A stretch of DNA of 64,000 nucleotides, taken from an uncultured Candidatus Saccharibacteria bacterium (GTDB lineage Bacteria > Patescibacteriota > Minisyncoccia > Phycocordibacterales > UBA9973). The stretch lies in assembly GCA_964354935.1 (NCBI GenBank), contig CAYHBT010000001.1, forward strand, positions 10,751-74,750. The letters run 5' to 3'. A model generated the notes under the pieces. That model was not told the DNA's origin, searched no databases, and saw nothing but the letters and a program-made list of their open reading frames with translations. The position numbers were made by a program, and so were the translations under genes. Below, one piece after another: positions 9,431-58,058 of the stretch (position 1 is the stretch's first letter; every line of letters starts with the position of its first letter).

Positions 9431-9472
9431 AGTGAGAGCTTTAGGCTCTAGGGAGAGTCTAAAGCTCTCACT
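9431..9472 (+). terminator. perfect 14-bp inverted repeat hairpin after lepA (AGTGAGAGCTTTAG...CTAAAGCTCTCACT). Belongs to the cagagcctaaRgc palindrome family.
   Basis: Inverted repeat read directly from the sequence. Downstream of it is an AT-rich stretch. Confidence 0.5.
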
Positions 9473-13030: not shown

Positions 13031-13049
13031 ATATCTATCCTTTTCCCAC

Positions 13050-13105
13050 GTTTTCGCAAGAACTTTTCGCAAGAACCGTTTTCGCAAGAACCGTTCTTGC
13101 GAAAG
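13050..13105. repeat. REP cluster: three tandem ttttcgcaagaac units ending in the perfect palindrome ttcgcaagaaccgttcttgcgaa
   Basis: Palindrome read directly from the sequence. It is repeated at 13805..13830. Confidence 0.8.
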
Positions 13106-13799: not shown

Positions 13800-13804
13800 C
13801 CGAC

Positions 13805-13830
13805 TTTCGCAAGAACCGTTCTTGCGAAAG
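13805..13830. repeat. REP palindrome tttcgcaagaaccgttcttgcgaaag (3' flank of RAYT-1)
   Basis: Same palindrome as at 13081..13103. Confidence 0.8.
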
Positions 13831-13836
13831 TTGCTA

Positions 13837-34392: not shown

Positions 34393-35361
34393 CTATTTCG
34401 TATTCAACGCAAGATAAATATCTTCGAGCGCGCGGACGGCATCGCCGGCGGCGATGTTGTTTTGATGATAGAGGACATCGGTGCAATCTCCGGCCGCCCA
34501 GATGCCTTGTGTCTGCGTCTTTTGCGTTTTAGGGTCTATTATTACTCTGCCTATTTCGTCGAGCGGAACGATGTCCTTAGCAAAACCGGTGTTTGGGATT
34601 TGCCCTATCTCCACAAAAATACCGGCGACAAGAAGCTCCACGATTTCTCCGGTCGTTTTATTTTTGTAGATAATGCCTTCCACGAATTTATCGCCTTTCA
34701 CTTCCAAAATGTCGACATTTTTAACCGCTTTCATTTTTGGATTTTTCAAAACTTTTTCTACCGTAATTTCATCGGCGCGGAAAGACTCGCTTCGATGTAA
34801 GAGGGTCACAGACTTGCAGTAAGCGAGGAGCTGGGAAGCGCTTTCAAATCCGGCGTTGCCTCCACCGATCACGACGACGTCTTGCCCTTCAAATAGAGGT
34901 CCGTCACAAGAAGCGCAATAGGTGAGGCCTTTATGTTCCAGTCTGTCCGCATTTTTCGCTTCCAACTTTCTGCGTCCGCTACCTGTCGCTATTAAAATAG
35001 TTTTTGTCTCAAATTCTTGACCGGATTCCGTCTTAACTAAGAAAACAGAGCCTAAAGCTCTGTTGAGTAGAGCTTTAGGCTCTGGAGGCACCATCTTTAC
35101 TGAAATTACTTTTTCACCCTCTTTCACTTCTAATGTTTGTCCGGCTCCGGCGTTTGCAAGCACATGTGTTTTTAAATTTTCCGCGAGTTCATTGCCGGAG
35201 AGGGAAGTCGTCCCGATCCAGTTGTATATTTTTTCAGACACGACAGACTGCCCGCCCCATTCGGCAGTGACGAAAAGGGTCTGTAGTCTTTTGCGAGAAG
35301 CATAGACTGCTGCCGCCGCTCCAGCCGGCCCGCCTCCGATGATTGTTAAATCGTAAATCAT
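34393..35361 (-). CDS. trxB: thioredoxin reductase
   Basis: IIGGGPAGAAAA, CASCDGPLF redox-active disulfide, and a second NAD(P)-binding GGGNAG motif. Contains an in-frame palindrome encoding PEPKALLNRALGS. Confidence 0.9.
   Translation of the reverse strand: MIYDLTIIGGGPAGAAAAVYASRKRLQTLFVTAEWGGQSVVSEKIYNWIGTTSLSGNELAENLKTHVLANAGAGQTLEVKEGEKVISVKMVPPEPKALLNRALGSVFLVKTESGQEFETKTILIATGSGRRKLEAKNADRLEHKGLTYCASCDGPLFEGQDVVVIGGGNAGFESASQLLAYCKSVTLLHRSESFRADEITVEKVLKNPKMKAVKNVDILEVKGDKFVEGIIYKNKTTGEIVELLVAGIFVEIGQIPNTGFAKDIVPLDEIGRVIIDPKTQKTQTQGIWAAGDCTDVLYHQNNIAAGDAVRALEDIYLALNTK
35045..35084. repeat. perfect 16-bp palindrome CAGAGCCTAAAGCTCT..AGAGCTTTAGGCTCTG, in-frame inside trxB
   Basis: Same family as the hairpins at 9431..9472 and 45716..45757. 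Confidence 0.8.
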
Positions 35362-40010: not shown

Positions 40011-41504
40011 ATGTCTTCAATTGATGAAATTAGAGATGCCAGAATAAAAAAGCTCGAACTCTTGCGAAGCAAGGGTTCGAACCCGTATCCGGCGGATTCA
40101 AAAAGGGAGCTTTCTTTGAAGGAAGCGATAGAAAATTTCGATAAACTAGAAAAAGAAAAAAATACAAAATGGATTGCCGGCAGGATAATGTCTATCCGCG
40201 GGCAGGGAGCTATTGTCTTTGTGACATTAAATGATGGCACAGCGCTTTTCCAAGGTTTACTAAAAAAAGATATTCTAGGTGAAGATAAGTTAAATTTTTT
40301 TAGTGAAGTGGTAGACATCGGAGACTTCGTAGAAATTCAAGGTACTTTTTTTGCCACCAAGAGAGGGGAGAAGACGCTCGAAGCGAAAGATTGGCGAATG
40401 CTTTCCAAAAGCTTGCGACCGCTTCCAGAAAAATGGCACGGTTTGCAGGATGTGGAAGAAAGATTCCGAAAAAGATATTTGGATATTTTGATGAATCCGG
40501 AGCTCAAAGAGCTTTTTGAAAAGAAGGCAAAGTTTTGGAATACTATCCGCGAATATTTAATTTCTAAAAATTTTCTAGAAGTGGAGACTCCAGTGCTAGA
40601 AAATACCACAGGCGGAGCCGATGCTCGTCCGTTTATCACTCATCACAATGCTCTTGATATTGATGTGTATATGAGAATTTCCGCTGGGGAATTATGGCAA
40701 AAAAAGTTGTTAGTTGCTGGTTTTCCGAGAACATTTGAAATTGGGCGTATTTTTAGAAACGAAGGAATTTCACCGGAGCACCTGCAGGATTACACTCAGC
40801 TTGAATACTATATGGCGTATGCGGATTATGAGACGGGTATGGAAATGACCAAAGAATTATATCGATTAATTGCAGAAAAAGTTTTCGGCACAACCAAATT
40901 TAAAATAAAAGGGTTCGATATCGATTTGAATAAAGAATGGGAAATTTACGACTTCAGTAAATTAATCGAAGAAAAATTCGGCATCAATCCGGTTACAGAA
41001 ATTTATTCTAAAACAGGCAAGATGGTAGAAGAAAAAGATTTAAAAGAAATTTGTAAAAAAGCCGGTATCGAATATGAAAGTGCGGAATTTAATATCACTC
41101 GTACTATAGATAATCTTTGGAAAGTTTTAAGAAAAGAAATAGGAGGTCCGGGGTTCTTGATTAATGTTCCAGTATCACTCGAACCGCTAGCTAAGAGAAA
41201 TAGGAATAATCCAAACACAGTCGAAAGATTTCAAGTCATTCTCGCTGGCAGTGAAATGGGCAAGGGTTTCAGCGAGCTCAATGATCCAGTCGATCAGCGT
41301 GGGAGATTTATGGAACAGCAAGCTTTGCGCGACGCTGGAGATGATGAAGCGCAAATGGCAGATATGGAATTTGTGGAAGCGCTCGAATACGCGATGCCTC
41401 CGGCGTTCGGCTTCGGTCTTTCCGAAAGACTTTTTAGTTTTCTAATGGACAAACCAGTTCGCGAGACACAGCTTTTTCCTTTAATGAGGCTAAAAGAAGA
41501 ATAA
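40011..41504 (+). CDS. lysS: lysyl-tRNA synthetase (class II)
   Basis: FLEVETPVL (motif 1), FRNEGISPEHLQDYT (motif 2), and a C-terminal motif 3. Confidence 0.9.
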   Translation: MSSIDEIRDARIKKLELLRSKGSNPYPADSKRELSLKEAIENFDKLEKEKNTKWIAGRIMSIRGQGAIVFVTLNDGTALFQGLLKKDILGEDKLNFFSEVVDIGDFVEIQGTFFATKRGEKTLEAKDWRMLSKSLRPLPEKWHGLQDVEERFRKRYLDILMNPELKELFEKKAKFWNTIREYLISKNFLEVETPVLENTTGGADARPFITHHNALDIDVYMRISAGELWQKKLLVAGFPRTFEIGRIFRNEGISPEHLQDYTQLEYYMAYADYETGMEMTKELYRLIAEKVFGTTKFKIKGFDIDLNKEWEIYDFSKLIEEKFGINPVTEIYSKTGKMVEEKDLKEICKKAGIEYESAEFNITRTIDNLWKVLRKEIGGPGFLINVPVSLEPLAKRNRNNPNTVERFQVILAGSEMGKGFSELNDPVDQRGRFMEQQALRDAGDDEAQMADMEFVEALEYAMPPAFGFGLSERLFSFLMDKPVRETQLFPLMRLKEE

Positions 41505-41721
41505 GAAACAAACTTGCCTAAGTCGGACTTCGGCAGTCTGTATAAATGAAAAACTCCGGAATCAAAGATTCTCGGAGCATCTTGGTGGGCGCTTTTTGCA
41601 CCCGATTTTGGAGCACTACCTCCCTCTCACTTAGACCCGCGTAATTGCTACTGTCTTTGTGAGAGGGAGGCCGATCAATATACGCCAGAGACATTATCTC
41701 ACAAAATATAATTTAAGTAAA

Positions 41722-41754
41722 TAAAAAAACCCGAGGGTACCATGTGGTCCTCGG
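41722..41754 (-). terminator. intrinsic-terminator-like hairpin cccgagg..cctcggg. The T-tract is on the minus strand, so it may be bidirectional.
   Basis: A-run on the plus strand before the stem. Confidence 0.4.
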
Positions 41755-41928
41755 GCTCAACCGGATGGCAGATTTATTTGCCGAACTGGTTTCGATCTTG
41801 CCCACGAGCTCGGGAGAGGGTTGCGGGTCGGAGGTGGGGAAATCCCGCAACCACCTTTTTCCCGATGGGTCTGCTCGTGGGCAAAATCTATAATACTTAA
41901 AGTTTTTAATTTGTCAAATTTATGACTA

Positions 41929-41965
41929 TTTTGAACATATGTAAAAGATAGTAAGATAAAAATTA
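41929..41965 (-). promoter_or_regulatory. conserved about 30-nt palindromic motif (cttacTATCTTTTACATATGTTCAAaatagtcataa on the minus strand), copy 3, about 250 nt upstream of mraZ
   Basis: Same motif as at 55882..55919 and 56541..56575. Core ACATATGT palindrome. Confidence 0.5.
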
Positions 41966-42208
41966 TTTATAAATAAAAACGCTCCTGAGGTGTTAGCCTA
42001 GGAGCGAAATTGGTGGCGCATCGCGCCGATTTAGTTTGGAAGAATTACCCCCTGCTAGCTCTTGTGTCACACTCGCGGTGCGAATTAACAAGAAACCAAC
42101 AGGGGGGGTCAACCAAACCGCCATATTCCTATGGCGAGAAAAGTATAAAACTTAAAGACACCAAAGTCACTAAAGTTATCCACAGGGTAGCTTTGTATTT
42201 CGCTTGTT

Positions 42209-42712
42209 TTGTTTTATGGGTGGAGTACAATATATATGAAGTGGGAAAAAGTGGGAAATAATAATTTTATGCTAATCGGAGAATACATACACACAATCGA
42301 TGAGAAGAGTAGAATTTCTTTGCCGGTAAAATTTCGCAAAGAGATGGGCAGAAAAATCATTATTACTCCAGGGCTTGGTCAGTGTTTGTTTATCTTTACA
42401 AACAAAGAATGGGAAAAAGTGAGCAAGAGGCTTTCTAGTTCAGATTCAGATCTTTCGTTTCTTAAAGCTGATCAAAGAAATTTCAATCGATATATGTTTG
42501 GACGAGCGGCAGAAGTAGAAATTGATTCAATAGGTAGAATGCTAATTCCTGAATATTTACAGACAAGAATTGGTTTGAAAAATTCGGCGGCGATTATCGG
42601 AGTCAAAGACAGAGTGGAAATTTGGAATGAGAAGATGTGGTCGGAGCAGAAAGCAATCGTCGAAAAGCAAGCGGAAGAATTAGCGGAAAAGCTTGGAAAC
42701 GAAGAGAAATAA
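42209..42712 (+). CDS. mraZ: transcriptional regulator MraZ (likely true start MLIGEY at 42269)
   Basis: Tandem MraZ repeats: GEYIHTIDEKSRISLP and GRAAEVEIDSIGRMLIP. Confidence 0.85.
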   Translation: MFYGWSTIYMKWEKVGNNNFMLIGEYIHTIDEKSRISLPVKFRKEMGRKIIITPGLGQCLFIFTNKEWEKVSKRLSSSDSDLSFLKADQRNFNRYMFGRAAEVEIDSIGRMLIPEYLQTRIGLKNSAAIIGVKDRVEIWNEKMWSEQKAIVEKQAEELAEKLGNEEK

Positions 42713-45715: not shown

Positions 45716-45757
45716 ACAGAGCCTAAGGCACTGGCTAGCCAGTGCCTTAGGCTCTGT
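45716..45757 (+). terminator. perfect 19-bp palindrome ACAGAGCCTAAGGCACTGG..CCAGTGCCTTAGGCTCTGT after ftsI
   Basis: Same family as the palindromes at 9431 and 35045. Confidence 0.5.
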
Positions 45758-49805: not shown

Positions 49806-49946
49806 CAACGAAATTTATTAAGATAATGTTGGTAATTTACGCATATGCAGAAATTACCAACAAAAAAATTATTCCTCCAACTTCGGTTTCTCCACTTCGA
49901 GTGGTGTCTGCTTTGTTAATTTTATTTCTTGTTATATAATTAAAAT

Positions 49947-54236: not shown

Positions 54237-55229
54237 ATGGCATTTATTGATGAAATACAAATACACGCAGAAGCTGGTCGCGGTGGCAACGGCGTCGTGC
54301 GCTGGCATCGGCAGAAATTCGAGCCAAAAGGCGGACCGGCGGGTGGAGACGCGGGGCGGGGTGGAGATTTTTTCGTACGAGCAATTCGCGATGTGCATGT
54401 GCTTTTGAAATATAAAGCCAAAAAGAATTTTAGCGCGGGCAGGGGAGAAGACGGCGGAAGTAAAAGTCTACACGGAGCAAACGGCGAAGATTTTATTTTA
54501 GATTTGCCCATTGGTTCCATTGTTACCAATTTAGCGACGGAGGAAAAATGGCAATTGACCGAGGAGGGGCAACAGATTTTGCTTTTAAAGGGAGGCTTTG
54601 GCGGATTTGGCAATGAGCATTTTAAAAGTTCGGTCAACACAACTCCACGCGAATCAAATACCGGCGGACCCGGAGAGACGGGGGATTTCAAAATAGAACT
54701 CGAGCTTTTTGCCGATATTGGATTTGTGGGGCTTCCAAACGCGGGCAAGTCTTCGCTATTGAATGCGCTCACCAATGCAGATGCAAAAGTGGGAGATTAT
54801 GCTTTCACGACTCTTGATCCGAATTTGGGGGATTTTCACGGTTATATAATTGCCGATATTCCGGGAATTATCGAAGGAGCTTCTGAAGGAAAAGGGCTAG
54901 GTGTAAAATTCTTGCGTCATATCAAACGCACCAAAATGCTTGCGCACTTGGTATCTTTTGAAAATCCAAATATGATGAAAAGCTACAAAGAGATTCGTAA
55001 AGAACTCCAAAAATACGATAAAGATTTGAATTTAGGCGAAGAGGGACTTTCTGAAAAAGAAGAAATAATTATTTTGACAAAGACAGATGTGGTAGACGAA
55101 AAAGTTGTCGATAAAAAAATTAAAGACTTCAAGAAAGTTAGTAAAAATATTTTTGCAATCTCCTTATATGATGATAAAATAGTAAAAAAGTTCGCTGACT
55201 CTCTCATAAAAATTTTGAAAAAAGCTTAA
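54237..55229 (+). CDS. obg: GTPase Obg
   Basis: N-terminal Gly-rich Obg fold (GRGGNGVVRW, GGPAGGDAGRGGD). G1 GLPNAGKSS, DIPGII. Confidence 0.9.
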   Translation: MAFIDEIQIHAEAGRGGNGVVRWHRQKFEPKGGPAGGDAGRGGDFFVRAIRDVHVLLKYKAKKNFSAGRGEDGGSKSLHGANGEDFILDLPIGSIVTNLATEEKWQLTEEGQQILLLKGGFGGFGNEHFKSSVNTTPRESNTGGPGETGDFKIELELFADIGFVGLPNAGKSSLLNALTNADAKVGDYAFTTLDPNLGDFHGYIIADIPGIIEGASEGKGLGVKFLRHIKRTKMLAHLVSFENPNMMKSYKEIRKELQKYDKDLNLGEEGLSEKEEIIILTKTDVVDEKVVDKKIKDFKKVSKNIFAISLYDDKIVKKFADSLIKILKKA

Positions 55230-55239
55230 AAAATAATTT

Positions 55240-55850
55240 ATGAAAATTTTTAGGAACGGTTTAGCAACAGGATTGATTCTCCAGCTTGCGGTAGGTCCAG
55301 TATTTTTTTTATCACTAATCTCGCATTGCAAAGAACAATTTTTGACGGATTGGCTGGTGTGGTGGCGGTCACTATAGTTGATTACTTTTATATTATGCTA
55401 TCCGTTCTAGGTATTGGGAAATTATTAGAAAACAAGAAGATTAAAAAGTGGTTTGGAATTTTGAGTTCGATTATATTGGTTGTCTTTGGAATGATTATCA
55501 TAAAGGGTGCAATGAATGGAAACGTTTTAACTACCATTAACGCCAATTCAGCGAATTTATTTTCCAGTTTCATTTCCGTTTTTCTCCTTACTGTTTCTAG
55601 TCCCATGACTATTGTTTCCTTTACAAGCATATTTTTCACAAAAGCCATTGAATATAATTATACAAAAAAGGAATTGTTTATTTTTGGTTTCGGGACTGGA
55701 ATGGCAACATTTTTGTTTATGGGAACATTTGTAATTTTATTTTCCTTAATCAAAGGAACCATGCCTATATTACTAACTCAAACATTGAATATGGTTGTTG
55801 GATGTTTACTTGTTGCATATGGAGGAATAAGATTTTTAAAAACATTGTAA
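55240..55850 (+). pseudogene. LysE/RhtB-family translocator, frameshifted at a T8 homopolymer (55303..55310). N-terminal 20 aa are in one frame, the rest in ORF 55326..55850.
   Basis: Frame A reads MKIFRNGLATGLILQLAVGPVFF. After the T-run, frame B continues ...ITNLALQRTIFDGLAGVV. A run of nine T would restore a single ORF. Confidence 0.55.
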
Positions 55851-55881
55851 GAAATTATTGAGACTTCTTTTTGTTTTATTA

Positions 55882-55919
55882 TTTATGACTATCTTTTACA
55901 TATGTTTAAGATGGTCATA
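55882..55919 (+). promoter_or_regulatory. conserved about 30-nt palindromic motif, copy 1 (ttatgacTATCTTTTACATATGTTTAAgatggtcataa), 30 nt upstream of the PaaX-like gene. A TATAAT sits at 55936.
   Basis: Repeat of the motif at 56541 and 41929(rc). Confidence 0.55.
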
Positions 55920-55947
55920 AGGATTATGTTATTGTATAATAGGCAAC

Positions 55948-56502
55948 ATGAAAGGAGAAATAATTTATAAAATTCTAAATTCTTTGGGTGATGTGGTGCT
56001 TGACCAAGTTGATTTTGTAAACGCTTTTTTGGCGGCAGGATATGGCGCAACAGGCAATAAAATAAATTATGAATTTTCAAAAATACAAGACAAAAGAATT
56101 AGAAGACAGCTGGAAAAAGAAAAAATATCAAAATTTAAAAATTACTTAGCCAAGCTCAAAGGTAACGGACTGATTTTAGAGAATGAATCAAAAAAAATAT
56201 ATCTAAGCGAAAAAGGCAAGAACAAATTAAATAAATTTAAAAATTCCCCTTTATCAAACAAAGAAAATTATAAAAAGAAAATAGGGGAAAGAGTTGTGGT
56301 TGTCAGCTATGACATACCAATAGCTTTTAACAAAGAAAGAAATATTTTGAGAGATATGTTGCGTATGCTAGGTTTCAATTTAGTTCATAAAAGTGTCTGG
56401 ATTGGCAAGGTTTTATTACCCGAGAGATTTGTTGCTGATTTAAGCAAATTGGGAATTTTGGATTATGTAGAAATTTTAGAAGTAACAAAAAACGGTACTT
56501 AA
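55948..56502 (+). CDS. PaaX-like transcriptional regulator (N-terminal winged HTH plus a Cas2/VapD-like middle domain; lacks the usual PaaX C-terminal domain)
   Basis: IYLSEKGKNKL wing. RVVVVSYDIPIAFNKERNILRDMLRMLGFNLVHKSVWIG resembles the PaaX/Cas2 fold pattern. Confidence 0.5.
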   Translation: MKGEIIYKILNSLGDVVLDQVDFVNAFLAAGYGATGNKINYEFSKIQDKRIRRQLEKEKISKFKNYLAKLKGNGLILENESKKIYLSEKGKNKLNKFKNSPLSNKENYKKKIGERVVVVSYDIPIAFNKERNILRDMLRMLGFNLVHKSVWIGKVLLPERFVADLSKLGILDYVEILEVTKNGT

Positions 56503-56540
56503 AAATCAAAAGATTAATTAATCTAATTTATTGCGGGTTT

Positions 56541-56575
56541 CTTACTATCTTTTACATATGTTCAACATCGTAAGG
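56541..56575 (+). promoter_or_regulatory. conserved about 30-nt palindromic motif, copy 2 (cttacTATCTTTTACATATGTTCAAcatcgtaagg), 55 nt upstream of gatB
   Basis: Repeat of the motif at 55882 and 41929(rc). Confidence 0.55.
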
Positions 56576-56627
56576 TTCTGTAGGAAGATTTATTAAAATA
56601 TTTTAAATATGTTAATATATTAGAGTT

Positions 56628-58058
56628 ATGGCGAACAAATATTACCCCACAATTGGACTAGAGATTCACGCAGAATTAAAGACGGAAACCAAGATGTTTT
56701 GTGGTTGCAGGAATAATCCTGATGAGGAGAAGCCGAACACTAATATTTGTCCGGTTTGTATGGCGCATCCGGGGGCTTTGCCGGTTTTAAACAAGAAAGC
56801 CATAAAGAATGTTATCAAAGTTGGCTTGGCGGTCGGCGGCAAGATTGCAGACTTCACAGAATTTGACCGAAAAAATTATTTTTATCCGGACATCCCGAAA
56901 GGTTATCAGATTTCGCAGTACAAATATCCGATAGTTTCTGGTGGAAATTTGGCGGGCATAGACATCACTCGAGTGCATTTAGAAGAAGATACAGCGAATA
57001 ATAAACATGACAGGGGAGACTTCTCTTTGATTGATTTCAACCGTTCCGGCGTGCCGCTTATGGAGCTTGTGACTGAAGCGCATACTTTTGAAAGTGCAGA
57101 GGAGACAGCTAAGACAGCCTCAAAATTTGCCAAAGAGCTTCAGCTTATACTTTGGTACTTGGGTGTGTCTGAAGCGAATATGGAGAAAGGCGAAATGCGA
57201 GTGGAAGCGAATATTTCTGTTTCCACTGACCCCAAAAAATTAAGCACAAAAGTGGAAGTAAAAAATTTGAACTCTTTCAAGAGTGTGGAAAAAGCAATCA
57301 AGTTTGAGATAGATAGAATGATAGAACTTCATGAAAGCGGCAAAGCGTCGGAAATAGTGCAGGAGACGCGCGGCTGGGACGAATCAAAGCAGAAAACTTT
57401 TTCGCAGAGAAAAAAAGAGGGGAGTGCGGACTATCGATATTTTCCTGAGCCGGATTTACCGAAGCTGTATTTGCATAAGGCTTTCGATTTAGAAAAAATA
57501 AAAAAAGAATTGCCGGAATTACCGGAGGCAAAACGCGCACGATATAAAAAAGATTTTGGAATAAAAGAAGAAGATATAGAGGTTTACATAAATGATCCTG
57601 AACTGGGCGCATGGTTTGAAGAAGCGGCGAAGATTTTGAAAGATAAAGAAAAAATAAAAATAGCATCAAATTATATTACGACAGACTATATGGGTCTCAA
57701 AAAAGCCCACTTGGCGGTTAAACCGCCAAGTGTTGGGAATTTCGCTGAATTAATAAATTTGGTGGCAGAAAATAAAATTTCTTCACGAGTAGCGAAAGAT
57801 ATCTTGGCGATGATTGTTGTAAGCGATGAATCGCCGCTTAAAATTGCAACAGAAAAAAATCTTCTACAAAGTAGCGACACAGGTGAACTTAAAAAAATTG
57901 CTCAAAAAATTATCGATGCCAATCCGAAAGTTGTGGCAGACTACAAAGGCGGTAAAGAACAGGCCACAATGTCCTTGGTTGGACAAATAATGAAAGAAAC
58001 CAAAGGCTCGGCGAATCCGGCGGTGACGAAGCAAATATTAGTTGAACTTCTAAAATAA
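56628..58058 (+). CDS. gatB: aspartyl/glutamyl-tRNA amidotransferase subunit B
   Basis: YPTIGLEIHAEL and CGCRNNPDE N-terminal region. C-terminal YqeY-like domain. Confidence 0.9.
   Translation: MANKYYPTIGLEIHAELKTETKMFCGCRNNPDEEKPNTNICPVCMAHPGALPVLNKKAIKNVIKVGLAVGGKIADFTEFDRKNYFYPDIPKGYQISQYKYPIVSGGNLAGIDITRVHLEEDTANNKHDRGDFSLIDFNRSGVPLMELVTEAHTFESAEETAKTASKFAKELQLILWYLGVSEANMEKGEMRVEANISVSTDPKKLSTKVEVKNLNSFKSVEKAIKFEIDRMIELHESGKASEIVQETRGWDESKQKTFSQRKKEGSADYRYFPEPDLPKLYLHKAFDLEKIKKELPELPEAKRARYKKDFGIKEEDIEVYINDPELGAWFEEAAKILKDKEKIKIASNYITTDYMGLKKAHLAVKPPSVGNFAELINLVAENKISSRVAKDILAMIVVSDESPLKIATEKNLLQSSDTGELKKIAQKIIDANPKVVADYKGGKEQATMSLVGQIMKETKGSANPAVTKQILVELLK

Follow-up and report, generated by a model that had tools for sequence, protein, structure and literature searches.

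What are two copies of one palindrome to the gene that lies between them? This question is raised by a locus in a 64,000-nucleotide (nt) stretch of DNA from an uncultured Candidatus Saccharibacteria bacterium (assembly GCA_964354935.1, contig CAYHBT010000001.1, positions 10,751 to 74,750), hereafter called the window. The gene (55948..56502, + strand; defined by its open reading frame, a Pfam match and a structural model) encodes a 184-aa winged-helix and Cas2-like protein, that is, a short PaaX-like protein. An earlier sequence-only reading took it most simply for an autoregulated repressor whose operator also controls the gatB-fba-FAD oxidase operon and the dcw operon headed by mraZ, or alternatively for a small inserted cassette. 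The comparisons described below suggest that the protein is probably a cognate, autoregulated, sequence-specific binder of duplex DNA with the dyad as its site, and that the gene and both bracketing copies form one unit.

The 20-mer TATCTTTTACATATGTTYAA within the palindrome matches the window exactly at 55890-55909 (+), 56546-56565 (+) and 41931-41950 (-), where 0.03 matches are expected by chance (shuffles); the three copies first reported are therefore confirmed. No fourth match was found in the window, even when up to three mismatches were allowed. A position-weight matrix trained on 119 related sites was used to scan the window and shuffled sequence, and returned the same three sites only from the former and none from the latter. 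None of the three palindromes is assigned a strand. The upstream one (55883..55920) is an imperfect dyad centred between 55901 and 55902 and is the predicted autoregulatory operator. The downstream one (56541..56574), the second bracket, is centred between 56557 and 56558, 55 nt past the stop codon. The third (41925..41952) is centred between 41938 and 41939, and its asymmetric inner spacer is inverted with respect to the other two copies.

The bracketing of the gene was followed in 24 orthologous loci, comprising the window and 23 fetched genomic loci (denoted by L numbers; gene calls on them are crude longest-open-reading-frame calls), with protein identities of 48-88%. A palindrome is present both upstream and downstream of the gene in all 24 loci, and the downstream one stands 21-68 nt past the stop codon whatever gene comes next. 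In the divergent orthologues, the core (CCATATGG, GCATATGC, TCATATGA) or the arms (GTTTAC) are altered jointly in both copies. Six distant family members are bracketed, with the same overall geometry, by unrelated palindromes of 32-40 bp, namely TCTACTATCyTGACGGCCGTCArGATAGTAGA (L144), GTCCGCTAATTGACGATCGTCAGTTTAGCGGAC (L147), TTCCGTTATACTTACGATCGTAAGTATAACGGAA (L150), ATTTCCAGTTTGACGATCGTCAAAyTGGAAAT (L151), ATGTCCTAACTTTCCGATCGGAAAGTTAGGACAT (L152) and ATATCAACTAATTAGCGACCGCTAATTAGTTGATAT (L153). The bracket is present in 30 of the 30 lineages examined. Moreover, where two paralogues occur in one assembly (L005/L016 and L018/L019), each is surrounded by its own variant of the palindrome. Beyond the bracket, sites are rare: one in the 64-kb window and one, intergenic, in the approximately 8-kb flanks of the close orthologous loci. 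Because of this rarity, the double flank is not a matter of chance, and the association of gene and site is specific.

Other short proteins with a PaaX_M domain are found in related genomes (L076 5969-6514 and L115 2165-2701; L006 3219-3854, L039 7544-8164 and L121 919-1524). One of 181 aa is divergent from dnaK and has a possible palindrome of its own in the shared gap (L115); another, which is about 205 aa long and includes a hydrophobic helix, has a palindrome, TTACCTAA...TTAGGTAA, upstream only. As the layout of these proteins is different, the double bracket is specific to the family studied here.

The upstream palindrome overlaps the regulator's own promoter. Promoters were identified as consensus matches, and that of the regulator, TGGTCA-17-TATAAT (55912..55940, +; 10/12 matches), has its -35 element, TGGTCA, within the right palindrome arm. 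The -10 element ends 7 nt ahead of the ATG, and this TATAAT-N7-ATG arrangement is conserved over the orthologous loci, which suggests that the mRNA is probably leaderless or nearly so. Between dyad centre and ATG there are 46 nt in 11 of the 24 loci (the window included) and 43-50 nt in 19 of them, and between dyad centre and -10 element 33 nt, a fixed distance that recurs in orthologues. In L009 and L144 the site lies 20 nt nearer the gene, and the arm itself provides the -10 element. The upstream copy is spaced relative to the regulator's own -10 element, not to the preceding stop codon, and a protein bound to it would span approximately -64 to -28 of the promoter, the -35 element included. 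These features indicate autoregulation through the upstream palindrome, with repression by occlusion as its most likely sign. In this respect the autoregulated operator proposed earlier is upheld, both by the conserved overlap and by the covariation of a protein residue with a base of the site, described below. Promoters of the lineage in general look leaderless or nearly so, their -10 elements ending 4-9 nt before the ATG (55935-55950, 56610-56630 and 42255-42271 in the window, and many loci); they often have an extended -10 element (TGnTAnnAT) and no clear -35 element.

Over the orthologous loci the site has a consensus of about 36 bp, tGTCYACTATC-N4-ACATATGT-N4-GATAGTRGACa, with outer boxes of (T/A)(T/G)AC in the lineage of the window. 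Its information content peaks at the outer box (-16 to -7) and the central 8 bp; the three patches of high information lie about one helical turn apart, which would fit one dimer with its winged helices on the outer boxes. The identity of residue 65 of the protein, which lies in an F-K-[K/N]-Y-L helix that aligns with the recognition helices of winged-helix proteins, follows that of base pair 16 from the dyad centre. Where the residue is lysine or arginine, the base pair is C:G in 16 of 17 lineages; where it is asparagine, T:A in 10 of 11 (with an occasional A or C in single half-sites); and where it is isoleucine, T in both lineages concerned (Fisher p = 8.8 × 10-6, a statistic that ignores phylogeny). 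Proteins with Asn65 fall into at least four separate clades of a neighbour-joining tree. Asn65 is also the residue of the window protein (codon at 56140..56142, +; helix F-K-N-Y-L), and, as the pairing would predict, T is found at position 16 in all six half-sites of the window, those of the third copy included. Lysine to G and asparagine to A are classical major-groove pairings. When the central core (ACATATGT, CCATATGG, GCATATGC) was compared with the first residues of the long helix, no consistent pattern was seen.

In the sequence-only reading the motif had also been described as a conserved core with variable flanking inverted repeats, in the manner of hairpin arms. This description did not survive a covariation test: in the 45 loci that have at least two sites, the complementarity of the arms within a site averages 9.15/12, and that across sites of the same locus 9.18/12 (Wilcoxon p = 0.66), and the variable flanks are half-site variants without compensatory changes. 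The lack of a within-site excess of pairing implies that the half-sites vary independently around a lineage-specific consensus. Folded as RNA, the three window copies give -17.3, -3.3 and -2.5 kcal/mol, the last two being no better than shuffles. In the consensus, the 5' flank is rich in T and the 3' flank in A, a polarity opposite to that of an intrinsic terminator in either direction, and a scan of 55800-56700 found no terminator-like site. The palindromes matched no Rfam family in a search of the whole window and of 41400-42400. Their inner spacers are asymmetric (TTTT versus TCGA) and switch orientation between loci and also between copies in one locus. A reading as hairpin or terminator was rejected on the combined grounds of absent within-site covariation, weak folding of two of the three copies, wrong flank polarity and no terminator match. 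The comparisons show that the protein is paired with its site and that the predicted target is double-stranded DNA rather than a hairpin.

The gene order obg - regulator - gatB - fba is conserved down to approximately 50% protein identity. In the window, obg (54237-55229) is followed by a gene for a LysE-type exporter (55326-55850), the regulator, gatB, the class-II fructose-bisphosphate aldolase gene fba and a gene for an FAD-linked oxidase. Most relatives are without the exporter gene and have obg directly upstream of the regulator; in the window the upstream palindrome keeps with the regulator despite it. Synteny breaks on the other side bear on the proposal that the downstream copy is an operator of gatB. 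Where genes are inserted between the regulator and gatB (L004, L007, L009, L010, L090, and L112), the palindrome stands at the stop codon of the regulator and none stands at gatB; where the next gene is convergent (L007, L112, and L022), the downstream site is still there; and gatB is without a site in L004, L007, L042, and L102. In L102 (4897-4987) obg and gatB are separated by a 90-nt gap, and in L042 (4992-5605) by an interval with a pilin-like gene; the regulator and both palindromes are absent from these two intervals, and the motif occurs elsewhere on the same contigs. The gatB promoter has an extended -10 element, TGTTAATAT (56610..56618, +), an instance of the TGnTAnnAT motif conserved ahead of gatB. 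In the window it is 52 nt away from the dyad centre, and this distance varies between 50 and 80 nt where gatB directly follows. Since the site stays with the regulator across synteny breaks, site, gene and site constitute one unit. From its position in these genomes, the downstream copy is assigned to the regulator and not to gatB, for which a role as operator was rejected on the same breaks.

The alternative proposal of an inserted cassette is borne out in part, in that the unit is discrete and is absent from the obg-gatB interval of two genomes. Its synteny, however, is conserved, the relative orientation of the copies flips between lineages, and no relatives were found in IMG/VR viral contigs or in phage and plasmid collections, which argues against a currently mobile cassette; a mobile element was rejected as a candidate on this last ground.

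The third copy had been placed about 250 nt upstream of mraZ and considered to control the dcw cluster. A motif on the minus strand is indeed there, in the 704-nt gap between lysS and mraZ, but it is 331 nt from the mraZ ATG (at 42269). Between it and mraZ lies a GC-rich putative non-coding RNA gene, RNA-A (41970..42135, -), with a promoter GTGACT-17-TATACT at 42170-42142 (-) and a terminator (hairpin and T-run) whose end is about 35 nt short of the third dyad centre. On the other side, a strong promoter, TTGACA-16-TATTAT (41890..41917, -; 11/12 matches), begins 21 nt from that centre and is directed away from mraZ; it is followed by a second GC-rich putative non-coding RNA gene, RNA-B (41730..41885, -), which lies downstream of the third site, ends in a hairpin and T-run, and has a minimum free energy of -81.8 kcal/mol over 171 nt. 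Such a position, beyond RNA-A and adjoining a minus-strand promoter, contradicts the proposed control of mraZ and dcw, and an operator of mraZ was rejected on this local anatomy. RNA-A and RNA-B both fold strongly, each has a sigma-70-like promoter of its own, and they are probably unannotated non-coding RNA genes; neither has an Rfam family or, by blastn, relatives in 1.17 Mb of related loci. One of the two putative RNAs contains a possible H-type pseudoknot (GGTGG/TTGCGGG...CCACC/CCCGCAA).

A scan of metagenomes with the exact 18-mer ACTATCTTTTACATATGT returned at least 120 stretches, related strains included. The regulator is on approximately 25 of these, and the other palindromic sites stand beside varied housekeeping genes (dapF, parB/topA, pyrD, alr, rluB-like, dnaX, and purH), with dyad centres typically 20-50 nt past a stop codon. 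Of 37 de-duplicated lone sites among the matches listed, 14 are in convergent, 18 in tandem and 5 in divergent gaps; convergent gaps make up 16% of comparable gaps, and their share of the lone sites is significantly higher (p = 1.5 × 10-3). Where a gene follows, its -10 element is 42-80 nt from the dyad centre, so that a lone site abuts the promoter without overlapping it. In two different species purH is itself bracketed (L053 at 4966 and 6624; L085 at 4084 and 5726), by one site 53-62 nt ahead of the start codon and another 30-40 nt past the stop codon. Extra sites occur at about one per 100 kb; a rough extrapolation gives approximately 5-10 extra copies per genome. The lone sites at gene ends, with which the third window copy between RNA-A and RNA-B is classed, are probably boundaries or roadblocks, or upstream promoter sites, and not operators of the classical kind.

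Palindromes of other classes are present in the same genomes. One class, with the core ATTTnnGCATATGCnnAAAT, occurs at 49827-49862 in the window and in L026 (4761), L083 (4342), L042 (60), L136 (11505 and 11549), L004 (2524), L039 (5977), and L088 (7510), mostly in convergent gaps and often 36-145 bp from the palindrome studied here. Unlike those of the latter, its outer arms diverge between copies and yet are complementary within a copy, which is real covariation. The same convergent gaps also hold palindromes with cores of the ACGGCCGT type (L026/L083/L127, L044, L111/L133, and L115) and the GCGATCGC type (L073/L074 and L110), which resemble the cores around distant family members (GACGGCCGTC, GACGATCGTC). 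This suggests several pairs of paralogue and site per genome. GC-rich perfect hairpins (..AGAGCCTAAAGCTCT..) are found in the window at 9431-9472, 35046-35084 and 45716-45757, two of which begin at a stop codon; they are probably the hairpin element that was earlier noted at tsaD. In addition, about three copies of a short tandem repeat, CGTTTTCGCAAGAAC, and inverted repeats related to it, TTTCGCAAGAAC...GTTCTTGCGAAA, are found at 13048-13104 and 13803-13831, in two neighbouring intergenic gaps.

The protein was previously described as a PaaX-type winged helix-turn-helix with a Cas2-like middle domain and without the C-terminal domain of PaaX. The architecture stands, but the profile by which the N-terminal part was expected to be recognised, PF07848, has no match to the protein at E ≤ 1. 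The match is instead to PaaX_M (PF20803; E = 2.7 × 10-8, 34.2 bits against a cut-off of 24), over residues 118-182; the family members P0124 and P0150 match this model as well. The only helix-turn-helix model of Pfam to match is HTH_45, weakly and under its cut-off (20.7 bits), and weak matches to HTH_45 and Sso10a extend across residues 61-99. The PaaX C-terminal model (PF08223) has no match, the protein stopping five residues past the Cas2-like domain. TIGR02277 (PaaX) does not match the window protein; it gives 27.9 bits, against a cut-off of 264, with the distant member P0150, which aligns to it over the recognition helix and the middle domain (E = 1.5 × 10-6). The Cas2 models TIGR01573 and PF09827 remain below their curated cut-offs for the window protein (14.7 versus 24.5 bits), and narrowly so for P0150 (21.2 versus 24.5 and 23.5 versus 23.8 bits).

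An AlphaFold2 model built from 96 homologues has a predicted local distance difference test score (pLDDT) of 84.9. With Foldseek, its top match in the PDB is PaaX of E. coli (8a39), aligned along the whole chain, and Rv0674 of M. tuberculosis (3kfw) also ranks in the top five. For the C-terminal domain, many Cas2 structures are returned (best probabilities 0.96-1.0, identity 16-29%), with target-normalised template modelling (TM) scores mostly of 0.4-0.6. When solved structures were searched by sequence with the family profile or P0150, no meaningful match was found. The N-terminal winged-helix region (residues 1-98; 55948..56241, +), delimited by the secondary structure of the model and by invariant columns, contains a GYGA turn that is invariant, a long helix that runs over residues 36-72, and a wing formed by residues 76-86. 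The Cas2-like (PaaX_M) domain (residues 112-179; 56281..56484, +), delimited by Pfam, Foldseek and invariant columns, has S120-Y121-D122 and S149/W151 invariant in 96 sequences, and shows the Cas2 fold with an Asp closing beta-1.

In alignment, the stop codon TAA (56500..56502, +) stands where relatives read TTA (Leu), and removes the last five residues, LKSKN, of a protein that is 189 aa in relatives. Five contigs carry a record of this 184-aa product, and the premature stop is therefore real and not a read error. The close homologues, 167 in number and about 189 aa long, have source names of Parcubacteria, Nomurabacteria, Paceibacterota or Patescibacteria. A full profile search gave 1965 cluster representatives at E ≤ 10-3, nearly all of those among the matches listed being of 185-205 aa. 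The family is very large (approximately 2000 clusters at 50% identity) and apparently confined to the Candidate Phyla Radiation. Public names of its members are 'hypothetical protein' or are derived from domains, and no description of the family or its palindromes was found in the literature on PaaX and Cas2, on palindromes and terminators of Parcubacteria and Patescibacteria, and on Rho of the Candidate Phyla Radiation.

The reading of a cognate, autoregulated duplex-DNA-binding protein has to be weighed against four others. If one repressor co-controlled its own gene, the gatB-fba-FAD-oxidase operon and the mraZ/dcw operon, the downstream copy would be well placed close upstream of the gatB -10 element, gatB being next to the regulator in many genomes, and the third copy would lie suitably in the long gap before mraZ. 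Such a repressor is nevertheless improbable in view of the synteny breaks, in which the site keeps to the regulator, before a convergent gene as well, and gatB has none, even where the regulator has gone from the interval; the variable spacing to the gatB -10 element and the surroundings of the third copy speak in the same sense. Little probability can likewise be given to the palindromes being hairpins in RNA or single-stranded DNA, whether as terminators, as 3'-end stabilisers or as substrates of a Cas2/VapD-like nuclease (compare Cas6 and CRISPR repeats). This explanation would account for the lone sites past stop codons and their enrichment between convergent genes, for the invariant Cas2-type YDI motif, for the failure to detect an intrinsic terminator around the gene, and for the perfect palindromes of 34-40 bp in some distant lineages. 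It also draws on an excess of G:U-type over A:C-type mismatches (43 versus 23, with sites oriented by the upstream gene, in a sample that is phylogenetically non-independent). On the other hand, it does not agree with the arm complementarity, the folding energies or the flank polarity, nor with the spacing of the upstream copy from its own -10 element and the covariation of a recognition-helix residue with a base pair.

The protein might instead mobilise or maintain the palindromes, as in repetitive extragenic palindromes and their associated tyrosine transposases (REP/RAYT) or in insertion sequences, the bracketed gene then being a mobile cassette, possibly domesticated. A single-copy gene that is always between its own palindromes, lone copies dispersed in extragenic 3' regions, several palindrome classes in the same convergent gaps, paralogues each with their own class in some genomes, and the absence of the unit from the obg-gatB interval in L102 and L042 would all suit this explanation. 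It is nonetheless most improbable, given that no HUH/Y1, DDE or recombinase domain was found in the protein, which has only the winged-helix and Cas2-like parts, that the copy number is low, that the obg-X-gatB synteny is long maintained with no viral, phage or plasmid relatives, and that the hairpins do not covary; no target-site duplications were noticed, although they were not searched for systematically. That some other factor binds the palindromes and the gene is between two copies by coincidence is scarcely credible: other palindrome families do stand at gene ends of the same genomes, but the bracket is found in every lineage examined, the sites are otherwise rare, the paralogues of one genome each have their own variant, and residue 65 covaries with base pair 16.

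Several observations do not sit easily with an autoregulated duplex-DNA-binding protein. The residue 65 rule has two exceptions, L024 and L057. A classical autorepressor needs no second site past its own stop codon, and the convergent gaps that hold 14 of the 37 lone sites contain no promoter to regulate. The invariant Cas2-type residues (YDI and SVW) are not obviously required of a pure dimerisation module, and the excess of G:U-type mismatches is a weak hint of a constraint at the RNA level.

Among known systems, the protein may be regarded as related to PaaX and working like it, although it lacks three of the four PaaX features (N-terminal model, C-terminal domain, and paa context). PaaX is a dimeric repressor that responds to phenylacetyl-CoA and binds a palindromic operator; it shares with the present protein the N-terminal winged helix and the Cas2-like central domain, and is its best full-length fold match. 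The differences are that PaaX has about 305 aa, with a C-terminal domain, whereas the present protein has 184-189 aa without it; that the PaaX operator is about 15 bp, whereas the site here is 32-40 bp, with the gene bracketed by two; and that no paa genes were found among the flanking genes checked. To our knowledge, E. coli PaaX does not have the Cas2-type YDI motif, which the present protein keeps. The motifs YDI...R..L...GF...SVW are like those of Cas2/VapD, with sequence scores below threshold, and the protein differs from Cas2 by the fusion to a winged helix. No CRISPR-like repeat array was found in the window; cas genes were sought among eight flanking genes only, and none was present. 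The Cas2-like domain here probably serves dimerisation or the spanning of DNA rather than spacer integration.

The likeness to REP/RAYT lies in a gene that is single-copy, inherited vertically and set between its own palindromes, in extragenic copies at 3' ends, and in several classes per genome. The protein, however, is unrelated and without HUH/Y1, there are about ten copies rather than hundreds, and no maintenance of arm pairing is seen. In Tus-TerB and RTP-Ter a small protein (in RTP, a winged-helix dimer) has its autoregulated gene beside one of about ten dispersed sites; in contrast, the sites studied here are symmetric, free of orientation and on both sides of the gene. A role at the replication terminus was rejected, as the skew does not inflect within the window and the sites are symmetric. 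With the looping repressors LacI (O1/O2), GalR and DeoR, which use auxiliary operators, and with the factor-dependent terminators TTF-I and mTERF, the regulator and purH loci share a site at the promoter and a second one past the end of the unit; those proteins are unrelated to the family, and looping or termination may be suggested here from the layout of the sites.

Mechanistically, two copies of the 184-aa protein would bind the dyad together, dimerised through their Cas2-like domains in the manner of PaaX and Cas2. Each outer box would be read by one recognition helix, with residue 65 reading base pair 16, and the conserved central CATATG would lie under the dimer axis. Binding to the upstream copy would then control the leaderless promoter of the gene itself, most likely by occlusion. 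The downstream copy is most likely either an auxiliary operator, which would loop with the upstream copy over approximately 650 bp, or the seat of a protein barrier between the gene and its neighbours. Looping would explain the pairs of sites at the regulator and purH, while a barrier would also explain the lone sites past stop codons and in convergent gaps.

An extension to the whole family, namely that its members are sequence-specific, protein-dependent boundary factors of transcription units (roadblock terminators or insulators), each of which insulates and autoregulates its own gene, is tentative and, as a full account, rather unlikely. Intrinsic terminators look sparse in the stretches examined, and TTF-I and mTERF provide a functional analogue, in that their sites also flank the units that they delimit.

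The kind of regulator proposed here, autoregulated and dyad-binding, is already known. Its universal double bracketing, its gene-end sites and its simple rule of residue-to-base specificity are unusual and testable features, and the bracketed layout together with the bias to gene ends is unusual for a bacterial regulator. As far as we know, gene regulation in bacteria of the Candidate Phyla Radiation, which cannot be grown alone, is almost wholly obscure. In this family, the predicted cognate DNA site of each lineage can be read from the two flanks of the gene, and the rule of K65 with C:G and N65 with T:A can be tested in vitro without culturing the organism. If the looping or protein-dependent boundaries are true, they would reveal how very small genomes keep one transcription unit apart from the next, and the Cas2 fold would have a second cellular role, as a dimeric module that spans DNA.

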